Shown one piece after another: positions 7,688-49,354 of a DNA stretch of 63,851 bases (positions are counted from its first letter, which is position 1; every line of letters begins with the position of its first letter). The stretch is from a virus. Its lineage: Duplodnaviria > Heunggongvirae > Uroviricota > Caudoviricetes. The translations under genes were made by a program, and so were the position numbers. Where the stretch lies: the IMG/VR virus record IMGVR_UViG_2879469214_000003, positions 64,001-127,851 of that record; one strand, given 5' to 3'. Below the pieces are notes generated by a model. The model saw only the letters and a list, made by a program, of their open reading frames with translations, was not told where the DNA came from and made no database searches.

Positions 7688-8140
7688 CTACATAAACTTC
7701 ATGGCAAATCTATCGAATCTAATTTCTGGTTCTGCAACATGCAACTCATAAATAACTCTAGTATCATTGCATTGGAATCTTTCCAATTGGTATTCGCTAA
7801 GACACTCTTGAAATAGTCGCTCCAAGGAACTCTTACGATCTTTTATATATGTATCATTAAAATTTTCATAAGAGTCGAAGCGAGTCATCTTTATCATCTC
7901 TTTTCTGTATCCATATAAAAAGGAGTGAATAAATTCAGTAGATTTGTCTTTGCAGTTATCTACAAAATAGTCCATGTTTCCTTTAAACATAAACTCGACC
8001 ATGTTTAAAAAAGTTCCAGCTCTCTTGCTAACCCCCAAAATCTCCATGACTTGTTGCATATGCTCATACCTCTCTCGTAAAAATGTATTTTCTGGATGTA
8101 AATTCTTCCTATGTACAAATTTTAATCCATCTTTATACAC
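7688..8140 (-). CDS. Hypothetical protein downstream of Agr-like cassette (start may be ATG at 8059)
   Basis: 150-aa ORF; GAGGT SD precedes the internal ATG at 8059. Confidence 0.6.
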   Translation of the reverse strand: MYKDGLKFVHRKNLHPENTFLRERYEHMQQVMEILGVSKRAGTFLNMVEFMFKGNMDYFVDNCKDKSTEFIHSFLYGYRKEMIKMTRFDSYENFNDTYIKDRKSSLERLFQECLSEYQLERFQCNDTRVIYELHVAEPEIRFDRFAMKFM

Positions 8141-8333
8141 TTGACAATCATATTTGGTAGGTGACTAAATTGTATTGACATATGCATAAATATGGAATCG
8201 ATCCCATAATAGTGTCGTAAAATGTCGACACTGTGTTTTACAGAACTAGTGTTCGTATTTATTATACAACAAATCCTTTGGTATAACTATACTTACTTAG
8301 AAACATAACCTGATCTTCTATGTATTTAGCTGT

Positions 8334-8711
8334 TTACTTACCAAACAGCTTTTTAATATAATTCTTTACTAATTCTATCTTGCTTTGGGCTATCGTTATG
8401 TACTCTTTTCTTTCATCATCAAAGTACACTTTACCTGTTTCATAGTCTACATCTTTCATCTTATAGAGGTTTCCTAGAATTCCTGAGTCGGTCAACATCA
8501 TACCTTCACGTTCATTCATTAACTTTAAAAATGCATCATTGCTATCGGATCTTATAAACTCTCCGTAACTGGTGTAGATAACGACCTTGTAATCTCCCTT
8601 TTTAAACAACTCTCTTCTGCACTGCCTAATGTCATCCACATCTAGCCATTCAGCAACATCACTTATTTTTTTACCCTCTCTCCTTTGAACCATAATTCTA
8701 TCTCTTATCAA
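8334..8711 (-). CDS. Stand-alone LytTR DNA-binding domain protein, no receiver domain
   Basis: 125 aa; VIYTSYGEF and LTDSGILGNLYKMKDVD resemble the LytTR RxHRSxLVN..I motif; follows agrBD. Confidence 0.7.
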   Translation of the reverse strand: MIRDRIMVQRREGKKISDVAEWLDVDDIRQCRRELFKKGDYKVVIYTSYGEFIRSDSNDAFLKLMNEREGMMLTDSGILGNLYKMKDVDYETGKVYFDDERKEYITIAQSKIELVKNYIKKLFGK

Positions 8712-8734
8712 GATGTTTCACCTCTTTTGAAATA

Positions 8735-8766
8735 GCTCTTCAACTTAACATTCTAAATTGAAGAGC
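8735..8766 (-). terminator. 9-bp hairpin between agrD and LytTR gene
   Basis: GCTCTTCAA / TTGAAGAGC with weak U-tract. Confidence 0.6.
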
Positions 8767-8778
8767 CCATTACTAAAA

Positions 8779-8913
8779 TTATTTCAATTCTTCTGGTACT
8801 GGCTCTGAGTGAATCAAAGTCCAGCTTGCTGTGTTAACACCAGCATAGGCAATCGCAGTAAACAAAAATCCAATTGCTGTCATAGTGAGTTTCATTACAT
8901 TCATTTTAATCAT
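8779..8913 (-). CDS. agrD: AgrD-like cyclic lactone autoinducer peptide precursor, 44 aa (not in ORF track)
   Basis: SD AAGGAGGTG; ATG overlaps agrB stop; MIKMNVMKLTMTAIGFLFTAIAYAGVNTASWTLIHSEPVPEELK: amphipathic leader, S-x4 ring, PxP acidic tail. Confidence 0.85.
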   Translation of the reverse strand: MIKMNVMKLTMTAIGFLFTAIAYAGVNTASWTLIHSEPVPEELK

Positions 8914-9440
8914 TTTACTTCACCTCCTTTCAAGCGAACCAAAAGGAGACTCTGAGCTAACATCGCTAGGCTAACTACTGGATTCTGAATTAAAAATCCT
9001 ATTAAAACTGTTAACATTGATATGTACTTTAGATACTTAAAATACTTTTTCAGTATCTTGGTTTGGTTTTCAATGTTGGATGGTGCATATACAGTAACCA
9101 AGATAAAAGCTATCCCAGAACAAATCCATTCAAATCCACCGATTAAACCTCCAAATTCAGCAATCGATAGTATTAATACAGATGAGTAGATTAAGCATAA
9201 TTCTGGATAGTCGCTATGATATCCACCCGATGTCATTCTGAGAATTGAAAAGGATAAAACGCTGATAAAAACATTCGATAAATTCCCTGTGAATACACCT
9301 ATTAACAATAATAATGAAATGGGAATCACATTTGTAAAGATGAATTTCAAACTATATCGAGTAATCCCAAATGGCGGCAATTCATTGGGAAACTGTGCCA
9401 CCAACCTTGTAGCAGTGTTGTTTACAAATTTATCAATCAT
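8910..9440 (-). CDS. agrB: AgrB-family peptide-processing membrane protease
   Basis: LRMTSGGYH and C (ELCLIYS) catalytic motifs, YAP motif, multiple TMs. Confidence 0.9.
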   Translation of the reverse strand: MIDKFVNNTATRLVAQFPNELPPFGITRYSLKFIFTNVIPISLLLLIGVFTGNLSNVFISVLSFSILRMTSGGYHSDYPELCLIYSSVLILSIAEFGGLIGGFEWICSGIAFILVTVYAPSNIENQTKILKKYFKYLKYISMLTVLIGFLIQNPVVSLAMLAQSLLLVRLKGGEVK

Positions 9441-10081
9441 CTAGCCTCACTCTTTTCTTTTACAACATCTACGAAAATAATATTAACTAAACAGATCAAC
9501 CAAAACAGTAATCCCAAATATATGTTTTCGATCTGTTTAACATTGTATAGAAGCGAAATGGCCAACAAACCGATGAAAACGCTAATTATATTTGTTCTAT
9601 TTATTTTAATTTTAAATGTGTAGTCATATGGCATTGTAGTATACCAAATTCTTCTTCTTTGTAGTGTTAAGGTAAGAATGATCAGCAATGAATTTCCGAT
9701 TAGTTGAATGTAAGATCCCAATTCGTCAATTGTTGCTGTGTAACTCTTGCTAGTAGCGAACATCATTATTATAGCAACCAGCATTTGAGAGATGAGTTGA
9801 GCCCCAAAACCATATATACTTAATTTCACACTGCTCCATGGACGAATTCTAAAATAAAAAGTAAGAAGTGTGACTAATAGAATAAAACAAATGAGAGGTA
9901 TGAATCCTGAGATCGCTTCATTTGATCTCATTAGAAATGTTCCTATTGATATTAAAACATTGCTAACTAAAATCTCTTTCCAATAATCTTTAAAACTAAC
10001 CTTAAAACACCCAAATGCAAACATGAAAATTGTAATCCCGTCCATTAAGCTCATTGCTGCATAAATTAAATCATTCTTCAT
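9437..10081 (-). CDS. Polytopic membrane protein resembling an AgrC sensor domain without a kinase domain
   Basis: 214 aa, about 6-7 TMs, no H-box or HATPase, stop overlaps agrB start. Confidence 0.65.
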   Translation of the reverse strand: MKNDLIYAAMSLMDGITIFMFAFGCFKVSFKDYWKEILVSNVLISIGTFLMRSNEAISGFIPLICFILLVTLLTFYFRIRPWSSVKLSIYGFGAQLISQMLVAIIMMFATSKSYTATIDELGSYIQLIGNSLLIILTLTLQRRRIWYTTMPYDYTFKIKINRTNIISVFIGLLAISLLYNVKQIENIYLGLLFWLICLVNIIFVDVVKEKSEAR

Positions 10082-10115
10082 TCTGGTTATCTCCGTCCTA
10101 ATGTGTTTTCTTTAA

Positions 10116-10176
10116 TTACACTAAAATAATATGTATTTCATGAATTAAATATATCATATAGACCCATAGGAGTCAA
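10116..10176 (-). promoter_or_regulatory. Promoter of Agr-like cassette with inverted repeated box in the leader
   Basis: TTGACT(10176-10171)-17-TATATT(10153-10148); TTACACTAAAATAAT box on plus strand from 10116. Confidence 0.7.
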
Positions 10177-10190
10177 CTATTTATACAACA

Positions 10191-10221
10191 AAAAAAGAAT
10201 AAAGTTTTCACTCTATTCTTT
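10191..10221 (-). terminator. Terminator after mrpR
   Basis: AAAGAATAGAG / CTTTATTCTTT stem followed by U run on minus strand. Confidence 0.55.
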
Positions 10222-11230
10222 AAAGTCCATACACTTTTTCAATTGTGGGAATATTCAAGAATTCTGACCTCATAGGCCCAGATTGATACTGACCCATTTT
10301 ATCTTTCTTTATGTTGAAGTGTTCAAATATTTCCGAATATTCTTCTGCCTCTAACTTATTCCGCTTATGATACAAGTCTCTTGCCACTTTCAACATTCCA
10401 CTATTTCTTACGTTTTTTACAGTTAATTGAGGTAAGTTGTGCCACTCCGCTATTTTTTTCAGTCTTGATTGAACTAAATATATAGAAGTTGGCTCATCTA
10501 TTCCCTGTTTGATTGTAGAATTAACAGCGGATCTAAGAATATAGTCGTTATCAATCAATTCATTTACACTACTTTTAATGTTGGGCTTTAGTATGCCATT
10601 ATTCTTAATGTATTTCTCTTCTTTATTTGCTATTCTTAAAATGTTATATAAAAAATTAGATATTTTTATTTCTCTACTTTCTTTAGTCCCATCTCCATTA
10701 TCATTGAATAAGGTAATTCTATATTTCCCTTCACTTCCAGTTATGTGTTCCATTTTCATATTAAGAATTTCACTGTTTCCTTTACCCATAATTCCCTCAA
10801 ATAAAGCTTGAACTATTAGCTTATCCTGAAAATTCAAACACCCATCTACGACCTCACCTATATCATCTTCACTAAACAATGATTGATGGTTATCAATTAT
10901 AAATTGGCTATACCACTCAAAAGATGTTACCGCACTTAATGGGTTTATATTGTCTTTACGCAAGTCTTGATCTATCGCCCATCCTATGTAGTTATTAATA
11001 ACACTACCTGCTTGCCTTAAAGATGATATTTTTTTTGCCTTCAATAAATACAGAAATTGAGATATTTCATCAAGATTAAAATCATAAAGATCTTTATCTA
11101 AACTTTTTTCCATTATAGCAGCCCTTTTGAAAACACGTCCATAGGCCAGTTCTGTTGCTGGGCTCAAGTCTTTAAGGTATCTGCTTTTTTGATCTTTGTT
11201 AAAAAAATCTTCATTGTATATTTTATTCAC
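10220..11230 (-). CDS. mrpR: SPbeta-type master repressor MrpR/YopR (inactive tyrosine recombinase fold)
   Basis: FNKDQKSRYL, KDLYDF, YIGWAI, NFQDKLIVQALFEG, LTVKNVRNSG match YopR pattern; catalytic residues degenerate; GTG start at 11230 after GGAGGAG. Confidence 0.85.
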   Translation of the reverse strand: MNKIYNEDFFNKDQKSRYLKDLSPATELAYGRVFKRAAIMEKSLDKDLYDFNLDEISQFLYLLKAKKISSLRQAGSVINNYIGWAIDQDLRKDNINPLSAVTSFEWYSQFIIDNHQSLFSEDDIGEVVDGCLNFQDKLIVQALFEGIMGKGNSEILNMKMEHITGSEGKYRITLFNDNGDGTKESREIKISNFLYNILRIANKEEKYIKNNGILKPNIKSSVNELIDNDYILRSAVNSTIKQGIDEPTSIYLVQSRLKKIAEWHNLPQLTVKNVRNSGMLKVARDLYHKRNKLEAEEYSEIFEHFNIKKDKMGQYQSGPMRSEFLNIPTIEKVYGL

Positions 11231-12545
11231 CTTTATCGTCTCCTCCAAACAGCTCAACAAAGTAATTAAAAAGTTGTTCACGAAGTCTTTTGTTATTAGT
11301 CAAAGAAGCTTTAGAATTTAATTTTGTCTCTAAATTCACTAAGTCATTTTCAATAATATTAATGTACTGTTCAATATCAGCAAATTCAATCTCATTATCC
11401 TTTAAAAATCTAGACAGTACAATGTAACCAATAAACATTAAAGGGTGACTCATCCATCCATTCTCACGCAATTGAGTATTTTTCGAAAACTCATTTGGAT
11501 AATAACCTACGAGATAAACAAAAAAGTCATTTAGATACTTAGAGACCTGTATTACATCAAATTTTCTTTCCATCTTAAATGCGCGGTCTATAGCATAAGA
11601 TAGAATATCGAATGTCGTTAGCTCACCAGCTAAATCACTTACAGTACTCCCTGAAGCAATCTGTTTACCAATTTCTGATTTGCGCTGTAGTTCGACTACA
11701 ACTTTATCAGATAATTTTTCTTGAGCGAGCTCCTTTCTTCTCTCTTTATTCAATACGTTAATAGTATTGAGTTGACTAAAAAACTGCTTAGATGTCTCAT
11801 AATCATAAATTCTAACTGATAGTATTTCATTAAAATCCGTCAAAGGATTAATGCTAATAGCGGCAACAAATCCCTGTAATCGATGGAAGCCATCAAGGAT
11901 AGAAATTACTGCTCCATCATTTATAGTCAACATTCTTGTATCTGAATTATAACTTACAGGATCAATTTCTGTAGAGTATACATTTAATGTTATCATGTCC
12001 TCAAAATACTTGTTATCAGAGGCTTTAGCAGCAATTCTCTTTACACTTGCTCTGTTTAAAATTGGAGATTTAACTATCCCACCTGATTTATTCTGCTTAT
12101 AAGTCACTCCACGCTGAGTTTCTTCTTCATAAATTATAAGTTGACTATTTACCATCTTGACCAATTCTTTAATTGAAATTTTAGTGAGATAACTGTCATA
12201 TTTAACTTCAATTACATCATTTAAAGTGTAAGGTAAATAAATTTTATTTTGTTCTTTTTCTTTTAATGATATTAAAGCTTCTCTAATTTCACGTTCTCCA
12301 AAATATCTTTCTCGACTAGGGTTGGATTGATCCACCTCATGTAATGCGCTAACAATGCCCACTAAATGAGGTATAGATAACTCAGTTATTGTTTCTTCAT
12401 TTTGATAAATTCTCTGTATCATTCCAAACGGTACATTGTATTCAACCAGTTTTAGATTTAACTCGTACTGAGATTTTCTTGAATTTTGTGTTGATTTTAA
12501 AGTTTCTAAAATTTCTTTCTCAATATCAGATCGATCAAATTTCAT
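11223..12545 (-). CDS. DndB/DGQHR-like protein, SPbeta YopQ (SroE)-like
   Basis: ILDGFHRL motif, 440 aa, directly upstream of mrpR as in SPbeta. Confidence 0.75.
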   Translation of the reverse strand: MKFDRSDIEKEILETLKSTQNSRKSQYELNLKLVEYNVPFGMIQRIYQNEETITELSIPHLVGIVSALHEVDQSNPSRERYFGEREIREALISLKEKEQNKIYLPYTLNDVIEVKYDSYLTKISIKELVKMVNSQLIIYEEETQRGVTYKQNKSGGIVKSPILNRASVKRIAAKASDNKYFEDMITLNVYSTEIDPVSYNSDTRMLTINDGAVISILDGFHRLQGFVAAISINPLTDFNEILSVRIYDYETSKQFFSQLNTINVLNKERRKELAQEKLSDKVVVELQRKSEIGKQIASGSTVSDLAGELTTFDILSYAIDRAFKMERKFDVIQVSKYLNDFFVYLVGYYPNEFSKNTQLRENGWMSHPLMFIGYIVLSRFLKDNEIEFADIEQYINIIENDLVNLETKLNSKASLTNNKRLREQLFNYFVELFGGDDKGE

Positions 12546-12997: not shown

Positions 12998-13369
12998 TTA
13001 CAAAGACAACGATAGTTGTAGTGCCTTGTTAATTGAATTTCCAAAGTGTCTTGGAAGTTCTGCAATTTTAAAGTCTAACTGATCTTTTGAAACTGTCATG
13101 ATTTGTTCCAACAGAATAATACTATCTTCATATAATCCAATTTCATCTTTATTTACTTTAACATGTGTGGGCATAGCCTTTTTCACTCTACTTGTAACTG
13201 GGGCCACAATCACTACTGGACTATATTTATTTCCCATGTCGTTTCCTAAAACGATACACGGTCTCTCTCCACTTTGGACGCTGCCTTTATTTCTTCCTAG
13301 GTTTACATTCCACATATCTAATCTCTTAACTTCTTTCATTACTCTCTCCATTACTACTGCCATAATCAC
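12998..13369 (-). CDS. mazF: MazF/PemK (EndoA-like) endoribonuclease
   Basis: GSVQSGERPCIVLGNDMGNKYSPVVIVAPVTS, PTHV, LEQIMTVSK; catalytic Arg and Thr present. Confidence 0.9.
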   Translation of the reverse strand: MIMAVVMERVMKEVKRLDMWNVNLGRNKGSVQSGERPCIVLGNDMGNKYSPVVIVAPVTSRVKKAMPTHVKVNKDEIGLYEDSIILLEQIMTVSKDQLDFKIAELPRHFGNSINKALQLSLSL

Positions 13370-13608
13370 CGCTCCTTATTATTTTTCAATTAAACTCTAT
13401 AATCTATATGTACCACATTCAATTAGTTTTTAAACCTTATGTACTATATAAGTATTATAATCGTTTAATTGATTTTTAACAATAGGAACATACGTTTGTC
13501 AAGAACATTTAGTAGGTGACTAAAATTTTCCTTAGATACCCGAATAACCTATTGACTTTTAGGATATATATGGTATTAAGACTAATCTAATCAATTTGGA
13601 GTGATACT

Positions 13609-17712: not shown

Positions 17713-18048
17713 CTACTTAGTTTTTTCTAGTGATACTTGCACCCGTTTAACGGCAGATTTTGCAATCTCTATTTGCTTCCCATTCACAAACTCGATCATC
17801 GCCTCATCTGTTTTCAAATTGATAACCTTAGCTGGATTGATGTAAGTGTCTGCATCTGATTTAATAAGATTTTCTGAATCTCTCAACATTGAGACCCACT
17901 CAGCATTATTTAACATTCTATATTCAGAACTGTCAGTCACCAATTTTATTACAGACCCCTTTACTCCAGTTCGATTTAAATACTGAATCTCAGAAGCATT
18001 TAGAGTCTTAATTTCATCTGTCAAAATATCAATTACAGGAATAATCAA
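17713..18048 (-). CDS. Second stand-alone LytTR-domain protein
   Basis: IQYL, LVTDSSEY, LIKSDADTYINPAKV resemble LytTR; own promoter upstream. Confidence 0.65.
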   Translation of the reverse strand: MIIPVIDILTDEIKTLNASEIQYLNRTGVKGSVIKLVTDSSEYRMLNNAEWVSMLRDSENLIKSDADTYINPAKVINLKTDEAMIEFVNGKQIEIAKSAVKRVQVSLEKTK

Positions 18049-18134: not shown

Positions 18135-18180
18135 ATCATAACACATATTTTATTTTATTTTCAATATTATTTTAGTGTAA
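18135..18180 (-). promoter_or_regulatory. Promoter with TTACACTAAAATAATA box
   Basis: TTGAAA-18-TGnTATGAT; box abuts the -35. Confidence 0.6.
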
Positions 18181-18332
18181 TAAAAAAGACGGAGAATTAC
18201 TCTCTCGTCTTAGCATATATATATTCTTGTTGTTTGTGTGTACTATAATTTTCAGCAGCGTCGATTAAACTAATCCATTCTCCATCATGCTTTTGTACCC
18301 ACATATGACCGTCTGAGAGTCGCTTTCCACGT

Positions 18333-24503: not shown

Positions 24504-24725
24504 ATGGTTTCTCGTAGATTAAAGATACACTTAGGAAATATACTTGATAGCAAAGATATATCAGCTAGAGAACTATCAAGACGTACAGGAGTTCGTCATG
24601 TAACTATAAGTAAGATTGTTAATGGTGAAGCTGTATACATATCATTTGAAAATATTGAGAAGATCTGCAATGAGTTGAAAATTGATGTAAATGAAATTAT
24701 GTCTATGATCGAAGAAGATGAATAA
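24504..24725 (+). CDS. XRE/Cro-family HTH regulator
   Basis: ISARELSRRTGVRHVTISKIVNG...IEKICNEL; SD AAGGGGG. Confidence 0.85.
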   Translation: MVSRRLKIHLGNILDSKDISARELSRRTGVRHVTISKIVNGEAVYISFENIEKICNELKIDVNEIMSMIEEDE

Positions 24726-48133: not shown

Positions 48134-49354
48134 GTGTTGCTATTGAATTCAATTAGCGACTACAAAAAAAGAATTGGTAAACAAAAGAATGTTGAGACTG
48201 CGACAGTTAAACATGCAAAACACTCAATCAAAACTTTTTTTCGGCACTCACCATCTTTTGAAGAAGTATTGTTAAATAATGATGAAGTAAAAGTTCCGGT
48301 TCAGATTGTGTCCGATGCAAAAATACCAACTGTAAAAACTATATTGATGGAGCCCGATTATTCTATTAAAGCTGGACATAGCATCAAGCGATCAAATAAT
48401 GAAATTTGGCTTTGCCTTAGCGATGACCCCAATGATGTATATGTCAGTGGAAAAATTGAAAGATGTAATTTCGATTTAAGGTGGATCGACCAAGATGGGT
48501 TTATCCAGTCCTTCCCCTCTATCCTATACTTCAATGCACGTTCAAATTTTGGTACTGAAGAAGATAAGCTAATGAACCTTCCTGCTGGACGTAGACAAAT
48601 TGTAGTGAGTAAAAATGTTGAAACACAATTAATACAACGTGACACACGTTTCATTATTGGTAGCGAAGCATTTAAGGTAATTGATACCGATTATATGTCT
48701 GATGATGGATTGGTTAATCTTAGCTTACAGTCTGATCAAATTGATCCAGTCAAAGACAATCTGGAATTGGGTATTGCTGATTATAATAAACTTAGTAAAT
48801 ATGAATTGATTATTCTTAATGACAATCCATTATCCCTTAGTGCTCACCAATCCGCAAAAATCAACGTCAAAGTATTGAAAAATGGGACTGAAACAATTAA
48901 TCCTCAACTTGAATATTCAAGTTCCAATACTGATTTAGTCAGTGTCGATGAACAAGGGATTGTTACTATTCATGAATCTGGTGAAGTAACTATAACTGTC
49001 TCAGCGTATGGAATTGAAAAACAACTGAATATTTATGTAGCCCACACTATCCATTATGACTATGACGCTACAATAGACGGAGCAAATGATATTTACTTAA
49101 ACCGCGAGTCTACATATGTAGCTAGTTTTTATAATAATGGTATTAAAATTTCTGATGAAAGTTCATTTTCATTAACAAATTTGGATGGCTCCCCTACTCT
49201 CCTCGCCTCAATAACCTCGCAAGATCCTATAGCAAATGCATGCACAGTCAAAGCTAACAGTATTCGTAAATTAGGTACTGTTATTTTACATGTTAAAAAT
49301 GCTAATGGACTGTCTTCGGGACAGAAAGAAATAAAAATTAAATCACTAATATAA
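48134..49354 (+). CDS. Head-closure-like protein with Ig-like (Big_2) domain
   Basis: YSSSNTDLVSVDEQGIVT Ig motif. Confidence 0.55.
   Translation: MLLLNSISDYKKRIGKQKNVETATVKHAKHSIKTFFRHSPSFEEVLLNNDEVKVPVQIVSDAKIPTVKTILMEPDYSIKAGHSIKRSNNEIWLCLSDDPNDVYVSGKIERCNFDLRWIDQDGFIQSFPSILYFNARSNFGTEEDKLMNLPAGRRQIVVSKNVETQLIQRDTRFIIGSEAFKVIDTDYMSDDGLVNLSLQSDQIDPVKDNLELGIADYNKLSKYELIILNDNPLSLSAHQSAKINVKVLKNGTETINPQLEYSSSNTDLVSVDEQGIVTIHESGEVTITVSAYGIEKQLNIYVAHTIHYDYDATIDGANDIYLNRESTYVASFYNNGIKISDESSFSLTNLDGSPTLLASITSQDPIANACTVKANSIRKLGTVILHVKNANGLSSGQKEIKIKSLI

Follow-up and report, generated by a model that had tools for sequence, protein, structure and literature searches.

Which signal informs the lysis-lysogeny decision of an SPbeta-like phage that lacks recognisable arbitrium genes, and could an agr-type peptide cassette directly behind its master repressor take that part? 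To our knowledge, no peptide system for communication between phages other than arbitrium is understood mechanistically, and arbitrium is confined to some SPbeta-like phages and some other Bacillus phages. The question is raised by the 63,851-nucleotide stretch of DNA analysed here (the window), which is the second half of a 127,851-bp IMG/VR provirus (IMGVR_UViG_2879469214_000003) with a completeness estimate of 95%. Almost all protein homologues of the provirus come from Paenibacillus, and by its gene content it appears to be an SPbeta-like Paenibacillus prophage with an MrpR-type switch. Behind its repressor gene, mrpR, lie genes for a membrane protein (mem), AgrB, AgrD and a stand-alone LytTR protein. 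On balance, we lean towards reading these four genes as a phage-encoded, phosphorylation-free agr-type peptide signalling unit that is wired into the lysis-lysogeny control of the prophage. New in this work are the breakpoints of a block exchange between phages, the co-variation of an operator-like box, a second MrpR clade with agr genes upstream, and a tally over 49 viral contigs carrying MrpR.

A four-gene cassette directly behind the master repressor

The first-pass annotation, made from the letters of the sequence, had placed four co-oriented genes immediately behind the master repressor of an SPbeta-like phage. Both halves of this description were borne out, as the two Pfam domains of MrpR matched the upstream gene and all four cassette genes lie on the minus strand directly 3' of it (lengths in amino acids, aa; mem was modelled with a predicted local distance difference test score, pLDDT, of 61):

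10220..11281, minus strand: mrpR, yopR-type master repressor, recombinase-like, 353 aa (PF22822 MrpR_N_CB, 1.6e-24; PF22823 MrpR_C_cat, 5.8e-13)
9437..10081, minus strand: mem, membrane protein, 214 aa, seven predicted helices, model pLDDT 61; proposed peptide receptor and LytTR anchor
8910..9440, minus strand: AgrB peptidase/cyclase, 176 aa (PF04647, 3.6e-20, above the cut-off)
8779..8913, minus strand: AgrD precursor, 44 aa, Ser-type (TIGR04223, 9.8e-08, 32 bits against a cut-off of 19)
8334..8711, minus strand: stand-alone LytTR-fold protein, 125 aa, TTG start, no receiver domain (fold and profile matches)

Read along the minus strand, the order is a pemK-like gene, a 68-aa gene, a yopQ-like gene, mrpR, a terminator and then the cassette. 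The repressor gene is 24-32% identical (tblastn) to the MrpR genes of phi3T, SPbeta-type, Goe13, Perkons and E3 phages, and the pair of YopQ-like and MrpR/YopR genes has the same arrangement in Goe13, Perkons and E3. The mem stop and agrB start, like the agrB stop and agrD start, overlap as ATGA, and mem-agrB-agrD can be read as a unit that is translationally coupled by these overlaps and served by a single predicted sigma-A promoter.

The sender genes carry the hallmarks of agr. Among 24 distinct AgrB sequences, residues R68, G72, G73, H75, C82 and P120 are invariant, and the H75-C82 spacing of seven is, we presume, that of the catalytic H77/C84 in S. aureus AgrB. A sequence search with AgrB gave no relative with a solved structure. 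AgrD has an amphipathic leader and ends in GVNTA-SWTLI-HSEPVPEELK, of which HSEPVPEELK forms an acidic tail. Counting back from the conserved VPxEL tail, as is done for known AgrD peptides, the ring is predicted to be Ser30-Trp-Thr-Leu-Ile34. Relatives of this AgrD keep A-S-W-T-[LVI]-[ILV] followed by x-x-E-x-V-P-x-E-[LM]-K, with Ser as the ring residue in all and Cys in none, and therefore a lactone is predicted, in agreement with the lactone peptide put forward earlier.

A divergent LytTR protein and a seven-helix membrane protein

The last gene of the cassette had been described as a solo LytTR. The protein itself had no match to Pfam PF04397 at E<=10, and NCBIfam also gave no family; the description is supported, as a divergent domain, by fold, family profile and relatives. 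The top fold matches in the PDB (Foldseek) were the LytTR domain of AgrA (4g4k, 1.8e-3), ComE and a B. cereus LytTR protein (3d6w), and the fold matches in the AlphaFold Database (AFDB) were LytTR proteins. An exhaustive profile search assembled a family of 33 representatives of 113-154 aa, whose profile matched the AgrA LytTR domain in the PDB at 9e-5, and 24 of 38 aligned family sequences matched PF04397 (best 1.1e-11). Where the PF04397 family has F-x-R-x-H-R-S-x-x-V-N, the cassette protein reads F-x-x-D-R-G-x-x-x-N-L. The LytTR fold fills the entire length of the 125-aa protein, which we take to be a divergent LytTR domain. Its TTG start lines up with an ATG in the related loci L010, L005 and L008.

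A second stand-alone LytTR-family protein of 111 aa is encoded at 17713-18048 (minus strand) behind an early-type promoter with a box at 18164-18181. It scored 2.7e-10 against the hidden Markov model (HMM) of the cassette LytTR family, is conserved in four of five related proviruses at 18-43% identity, and could be a lytic-phase partner or competitor of the cassette LytTR protein.

The membrane protein belongs to no Pfam or NCBIfam family. Its profile search of the PDB was without match, Foldseek against the PDB returned noise only, and neither feature-based nor shape-based searches of the ESM Atlas were informative. By fold, it resembled uncharacterised proteins in the AFDB, and the N-termini of GHKL kinases were matched weakly (E 0.04, template modelling score 0.64, model pLDDT 61). 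Its homologues include the membrane proteins encoded in chromosomal agr-LytTR loci (hhalign 96%, E 1.7e-9), and its 214 aa comprise no cytoplasmic domain. Residues ~108-124 are its least conserved stretch, and the motifs found there go with the peptide type, SY[TS]x-T[IL] occurring with TASWTLI and F[TS][EQ]-AS with VASWTVI. Altogether five peptide types are predicted (TASWTLI, VASWTVI, AASWTLV, AASWTIV and TASWTIL), and they coincide with the sequence types of the mem loop. By the positive-inside rule, this variable loop is predicted to be extracellular, with a cytoplasmic position predicted for the hydrophilic stretch of highest conservation (QRRRIWYTTMPYDYTFKIK) and for the C-terminal tail. 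A variable outer loop with a conserved inner loop and tail is the pattern expected of a receptor that docks a cytoplasmic partner; shared ancestry could give the same pattern.

The cassette promoter carries the early-promoter box of the phage

The regulatory DNA in front of and within the cassette comprises the following elements:

10190..10219, minus strand: intrinsic terminator after mrpR, AGAATA...TATTCT with a T run, read from the sequence; hairpin and T run in 10/10 loci
10148..10176, minus strand: cassette promoter of sigma-A type, -35 TTGACT, 17-nt spacer, TG-extended -10 TATATT (promoter scan 10/12 with TG)
10115..10132, minus strand: operator-like box ATATTATTTTAGTGTAAT, one mismatch to the consensus, inverted, at about +10 to +27, downstream of the -10
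8734..8767, minus strand: strong hairpin after agrD with a short A/U-rich tract (-19.6 kcal/mol, z -5.6)

The -35 form TTGAC(T/A) of the cassette promoter is kept in 10/10 loci. The consensus of the 18-bp box is GTATTATTTTAGTGTAAT, and the provirus holds 36 copies of it at <=4 mismatches, compared with 4-11 in shuffles. Of these, ~20 directly adjoin a -35, in promoters that serve the early minus-strand genes or the first plus-strand operon. The first-pass annotation had given the cassette its own promoter with the box of the early lytic promoters; the promoter and the box are real, and what it had left unstated is that the cassette copy is inverted and lies downstream of the -10. In this position, the box looks like an operator in the transcribed leader, unlike the promoter layout elsewhere in the provirus. 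Among ten related phages, the box at the cassette position matches the early-promoter box of its own phage better than those of the others (12.6 vs 10.7 of 14 positions). No permutation out of 20,000 reached the observed value; as the compared loci share ancestry, this count overstates their independence. The MrpR of SPbeta binds the SPBRE repeats both at early promoters and at PaimR, the promoter of aimR (PMC10516654), and by analogy we infer that the cassette may belong to the MrpR regulon, with MrpR binding the box. Two other interpretations of this DNA were rejected. The sequence TTGTTGTATAA, considered as the shared box, is a promoter-proximal coincidence with three intergenic copies, the true repeat being GTATTATTTTAGTGTAAT, and the inverted box does not form an antisense promoter into mrpR, as the adjoining -35 and -10 are poor (GTATTT, ATATAG).

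A hairpin between agrD and the LytTR gene, with a short A/U tract behind it, occurs in 10/10 loci (-15 to -25 kcal/mol, z -2.5 to -7.4), and its sequences differ from locus to locus. It is probably a leaky terminator or an RNA stabiliser that sets a low ratio of LytTR to the sender proteins, and the LytTR gene is presumably reached by read-through past it. Beyond the LytTR gene, in the direction of the early genes, two further elements are conserved:

8242..8266, minus strand: sigma-A -10 TATAAT (8261-8266) with the LexA/Cheo box CGAACACTAGTTCT (8242-8255) just downstream; 10/10 loci; reads toward the early genes
8213..8228, minus strand: direct repeat TCGACA-N5-CGACA in the leader of the LexA-box promoter; 10/10 loci; unique in the 127.9-kb provirus

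The whole provirus contains two LexA boxes of the form CGAAC-N4-GTTC, the one at 8242-8255 of the window and one at provirus position 48245, outside the window. The box 3' of the LytTR gene is a candidate entry point of the SOS response into the lytic programme, and TCGACA-N5-CGACA may be considered a candidate LytTR site.

Absence of arbitrium and of kinases

The first-pass annotation had seen no AimR-like TPR protein or AimP near the repressor, and profile searches extend this absence to the whole provirus. The searches it had proposed as a check recovered AgrB and AgrD at the values listed above and found no AimR. Over the 127.9-kb provirus, the best score of the AimR model NF038310 was 27 bits (cut-off 70), for a 73-aa helix-turn-helix (HTH) protein, and TPR_12 was without match. 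The same model found no AimR in five related proviruses, and a query with the AimR of Goe13 found nothing in the 49 MrpR loci. There is no AimP pair because there is no aimR, and a complete arbitrium system elsewhere in the provirus, named in the first-pass annotation as grounds for giving up its proposal, was not found. AgrD is the sole signal-peptide-like small gene at the switch. Kinase domains were likewise absent, as HATPase_c (PF02518) and HATPase_c_5 (PF14501) had no match at E<=1 anywhere in the provirus. The 73-aa protein, the sole match of the AimR model in the provirus, is of Cro/C1 type (24504-24725, plus strand; HTH_26, 1.2e-14), and equivalent small HTH genes occur in five related proviruses.

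Fixed placement of the cassette and its exchange as a block

The order yopQ-mrpR-mem-agrB-agrD-LytTR-p150 is kept in the ten loci compared in detail, which come from Paenibacillus genomes and IMG/VR proviruses of 127-204 kb, so that the synteny across relatives proposed earlier as a further check is indeed found. Members of the LytTR family down to ~26% identity still lie directly behind yopQ-mrpR, and about 24 of the 49 viral contigs fetched by the MrpR profile have the complete cassette in this position. With the 5-kb region as blastn query, 50,697 phage records yielded no match. Among 77 phage isolates that possess an MrpR relative, no AgrB of the cassette kind was detectable. Brevibacillus phage Abouo is the sole isolate with the cassette, and its gp44-47 are the same four proteins by HMM.

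Variants of the arrangement occur. In L028 (3599-4221), the LytTR gene lies directly behind mrpR without agr genes. L061 (6156-9038) has the order MrpR-AgrB-mem-AgrD-LytTR-LytTR, with both LytTR proteins longer (160-180 aa); behind the MrpR gene of L065 (6105-7917) come an AgrB-like gene, mem and LytTR, with no recognised AgrD; and L057 has neither agr genes nor a LytTR gene behind mrpR. A second, more distant MrpR clade (L071, L082, L084 and L086) carries AgrB (1e-29 to 1e-34) and AgrD upstream of yopQ-mrpR, in the place where SPbeta has aimR-aimP. In this clade, AgrD is above the cut-off in two loci, and a membrane protein and a 260-aa PemK-domain protein stand alongside. The PemK-domain protein, 260-267 aa long in L071, L082 and L084, is encoded between AgrD and AgrB.

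Chromosomes of Paenibacillus also contain such units. Three have extra agrB loci, two of which are clearly mem-AgrB-AgrD(Ser)-LytTR-like (L023 and L024), and mem and the LytTR protein are found together in all versions seen, whether chromosomal or phage-borne. These chromosomal, non-prophage loci (L023, 5355-7037; L024, 5419-7103; L025, 5836-7018) are kinase-less, with Ser-type AgrD rings such as SPVYV and SLAWV. In three of five host genomes, an AgrC-like orphan kinase is encoded together with a LytTR response regulator at a site that has no agrB next to it.

Comparison of the individual genes revealed a mosaic. The mem, AgrB and AgrD of the window are nearest to those of L005 and L010, at 77-78%, 66-70% and 77-80% identity, respectively, whereas its MrpR, YopQ-like, LytTR and p150 proteins are nearest to those of L004, L006 and L007 and far from L005 and L010. 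In sliding nucleotide identity, one breakpoint falls where mem starts, near 10100, and the other where agrD ends, near 8850-8900. From the mosaic identities and the breakpoints, it follows that mem-agrB-agrD was exchanged as a single block; the boxed promoter and the LytTR gene stay with the repressor gene mrpR. Modular exchange of this kind fits a signal/receptor unit.

Proposed mechanism and its alternatives

We propose the following mechanism. MrpR would bind the box of the cassette as it does the SPBRE of PaimR, and the cassette would be low in the stable lysogen and on upon infection or induction. AgrB, with His75 and Cys82, would remove the tail of AgrD and close the Ser30-Ile34 lactone, giving cyclo(SWTLI) with a short N-terminal extension. 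The seven-helix protein mem would sense the exported peptide through its variable, predicted extracellular loop, and would hold or release the LytTR protein at its conserved cytoplasmic loop and tail, like the membrane inhibitors of LytTR regulatory systems. The freed LytTR protein may then act on the switch DNA 3' of its own gene, with TCGACA-N5-CGACA, between the LexA box and the next promoter, as candidate site, and a population signal and an SOS signal would be combined in the decision to express the early lytic genes. What ties the cassette to the phage switch is comparative: its fixed position, the box of its own phage, the LytTR gene kept behind mrpR, and the other arrangements of agr genes with mrpR all point in this direction. 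The first-pass annotation had suggested that this lineage may use an Agr-like lactone peptide as phage-phage signal in place of arbitrium; the anatomy, the absence of arbitrium and the tie to the switch now support it, all from genomics, and we infer, at a lower level of confidence, that the peptide serves as the phage-to-phage signal deciding between lysis and lysogeny. A bolder version holds that a clade of SPbeta-like Paenibacillus phages replaced arbitrium by a phosphorylation-free agr system with a Ser-lactone, a new seven-helix receptor, a bare LytTR protein that this receptor releases or sequesters and that gates a LexA-controlled early promoter, and private peptide types created by swapping of the sender/receptor block between phages; population density and DNA damage would thereby meet at one DNA site. 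This is possible, and we hold it only tentatively.

Several observations weigh against the proposed mechanism. The search for longer, kinase-fused homologues of mem found none, and comparison of mem with the N-terminus of the AgrC-like kinase of the host genus gave 0.5% in hhalign, with no detectable relation. Because the fold matches are also weak, mem is not called an AgrC sensor domain here. The binding of MrpR to the box is argued by analogy with SPbeta only, and the box sequence is not the one expected for SPbeta. Canonical LytTR direct repeats (9-mers, at least 8/9, spaced 19-23 bp) are absent from five regulatory regions, and the ~12 nt between the mrpR terminator and the cassette -35 leave no room for upstream autoregulatory repeats. 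The 11-bp-period repeat in the LexA-box leader is conserved even though the LytTR proteins are ~32% identical, and it could equally be bound by another protein. The absence of AimR was judged by one family model and TPR_12, which a very divergent receptor could escape. Finally, the four-gene unit also occurs in Paenibacillus chromosomes; it is therefore not specific to phages, and is a general bacterial signalling unit that a phage might carry for other purposes.

This last point leads to the possibility of lysogenic conversion, in which a host-type, kinase-less agr unit alters host behaviour (competence, sporulation, biofilm or bacteriocins) via host promoters, outside the phage decision. The non-phage Paenibacillus loci share the architecture and have homologous parts, the own promoter with flanking terminator and hairpin is moron-like, and mem-agrB-agrD moves between phages as a block. 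Morons, however, are usually found at variable sites, whereas the cassette occupies one fixed site, from mrpR to an SOS-controlled early promoter, across very divergent phages. In addition, the box in its promoter is the own early-promoter box of the phage and co-varies with the phage, the LytTR gene co-varies with mrpR and persists without agr genes, and in Abouo the unit has arisen next to CI and integrase as an independent recurrence. We regard lysogenic conversion as unlikely. A different objection concerns mem, which may be a factor for maturation, export or self-protection of the peptide (MroQ-like) rather than its receptor. A host AgrC-type kinase would then sense the peptide, or the peptide would interfere with the signalling of the host or of rival phages, and LytTR would be regulated otherwise. 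This would agree with the missing sequence link to AgrC sensors and the lack of fused kinase forms, with the tight coupling of mem to agrB and agrD, with which it is inherited and not with the LytTR gene, and with the orphan kinase and LytTR response regulator in three of five host genomes. However, a receiver-less LytTR protein needs an input, for which the sole characterised precedent is inhibition by a membrane protein of the same operon (PMC6193735), variation in mem is greatest in the loop predicted to face outward, where it goes with the peptide type, whereas the charged loop and tail predicted to be cytoplasmic are strongly conserved, and mem and LytTR are together in all versions seen, in L065 even without a clear AgrD. 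We consider such a role of mem other than that of receptor quite improbable.

The signal may also pass from lysogens to infecting phages. As a device of superinfection control or kin recognition, the peptide of the lysogen would make incoming phages of the same type lysogenise or abort, or would pre-empt the induction of neighbours, and would not count infections as arbitrium does. Discrete peptide types that are swapped as blocks, a cassette adjoining the immunity repressor gene, and the second stand-alone LytTR paralogue under an early promoter, which an incoming phage would express, would suit such a device. Nevertheless, repression of the boxed promoter by MrpR, as proposed above, would leave little peptide in lysogens, and nothing in the sequence separates this explanation from a signal that informs the decision of the infecting phage; we think it very unlikely.

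Comparison with known systems

The sender side of the cassette is partly agr-like, its receiver side is partly like the LytTR regulatory systems (LRS), and its niche is that of arbitrium, and it is a member of none of these three, because the agr kinase and receiver are absent, the LRS promoter repeats are absent, and there is no homology to arbitrium. With the agr system of S. aureus type, it shares an AgrB with invariant His and Cys, an AgrD with amphipathic leader, five-residue ring and acidic xxVPxEL tail, and a LytTR output. It differs in having no AgrC kinase and no receiver domain on LytTR, in the seven-helix protein that precedes agrB, and in a ring Ser (lactone) instead of Cys. Moreover, no direct repeats of AgrA type were found, and the cassette lies in a phage genome behind the master repressor.

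The LRS of Streptococcus mutans, HdrRM and BrsRM (PMC6193735), also combine a receiver-less LytTR protein with a polytopic membrane protein in one operon without a kinase. In the cassette, however, the gene order is reversed with AgrB and AgrD inserted, mem is not of the HdrM or BrsM family, and the defining direct repeats of LRS (11-13 bp spacer, ~10 bp upstream of the operon -35) were not found. A signal can be predicted for the cassette, whereas that of LRS is unknown.

Like arbitrium (AimR-AimP-AimX), the cassette places peptide signal genes next to the sro (yopQ-yopR) repressor operon in a large temperate phage of SPbeta-like type. Its promoter bears the repeated operator-like box of the phage, as PaimR bears the MrpR-bound SPBRE (PMC10516654), and the peptide variants differ among related phages. 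The two have no homology. The arbitrium peptide is a linear hexapeptide cut from a secreted propeptide, whereas the cassette peptide is predicted to be a cyclic lactone made by AgrB; the arbitrium receptor is a cytoplasmic TPR protein reached through Opp, whereas a membrane receptor is proposed here; the output is LytTR rather than HTH; and the cassette lies downstream of mrpR, whereas arbitrium lies upstream of the operon.

Among phages, phiCDHM1 of Clostridioides difficile (PMC3901668) is likewise temperate with AgrB and AgrD near its lysogeny genes, but it has a full AgrC kinase and no response regulator, whereas the cassette has no kinase and a LytTR output. Abouo is closer: gp44-47 have the same order (mem HMM 4e-25, AgrB 1e-44, a 42-aa AgrD-like peptide and a 122-aa LytTR protein at 1.7e-12) and lie among lysogeny genes, between integrase and CI/Cro. 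However, Abouo is an unrelated 45-kb phage with a CI/Cro and not an MrpR switch, and its AgrB is 29% identical. Hargreaves et al. (2014, PMC3901668) mentioned in passing, without experiments, that the phages Abouo, Davies and Emery carry AgrB, AgrD and membrane proteins without a HATPase domain, and the LytTR protein was not recognised; this passing mention of Abouo-type phages is the published record for the cassette. Two reviews contribute nothing specific. A review from 2025 credits SPbeta-like phages with agr homologues; we do not count it as prior art, as both references cited there are on other subjects.

If the cassette does the job of arbitrium, switch-level peptide communication would have arisen at least two times, from unrelated parts, in one phage supergroup. 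It would also mean that neither a kinase nor a phospho-receiver is required to read cyclic peptides of agr type, a wiring that is undescribed for agr and would extend to bacterial chromosomes. The system is well suited to testing, with a predictable peptide that can be synthesised, culturable hosts, the isolated phage Abouo, and natural peptide types as specificity controls.

Neighbouring genes and sites

The remaining features around the cassette are a site and a gene past the LytTR end and the genes at the head of the repressor operon:

7688..8068, minus strand: conserved downstream gene, ~126 aa from the ATG at 8068, no Pfam family; first gene past the switch region
8119..8170, minus strand: palindromic operator ATTTAGTCACCTACCAAAT (8152-8170), ATTTAGT-N5-ACCAAAT, abutting the promoter TTGTCA-17-TAAAAT (8147-8119) before the next gene
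11223..12545, minus strand: yopQ/SroE-like gene, DndB/DGQHR-like, 440 aa (PF14072 DndB, 2e-09; TIGR03187, 2.3e-09)
12998..13369, minus strand: PemK/MazF-like toxin gene (PF02452, 7.2e-25), head of the yopQ-mrpR operon; identical synteny in L004

Nearly all related loci have the downstream gene behind their LytTR gene. The palindrome, of the general form ATTTAGT-N5-ACTAAAT, also occurs 5' of the promoter of the pemK-yopQ-mrpR operon (13505-13526, minus strand), abutting the -35, and its centre co-varies between both sites within six phages. It was set aside as a LytTR site, as a 19-bp palindrome better suits a dimeric HTH protein. In relatives, the promoter of the pemK-yopQ-mrpR operon also bears a LexA-like box. 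The yopQ-like gene overlaps the start of mrpR and lies 5' of it in all related loci, as yopQ does in Spbetavirus Goe13. No antitoxin is visible beside the PemK/MazF-like toxin gene. In SPbeta, arbitrium, YopM and the host MazEF are linked (PMC10516654), a link that the PemK-like genes near MrpR recall.

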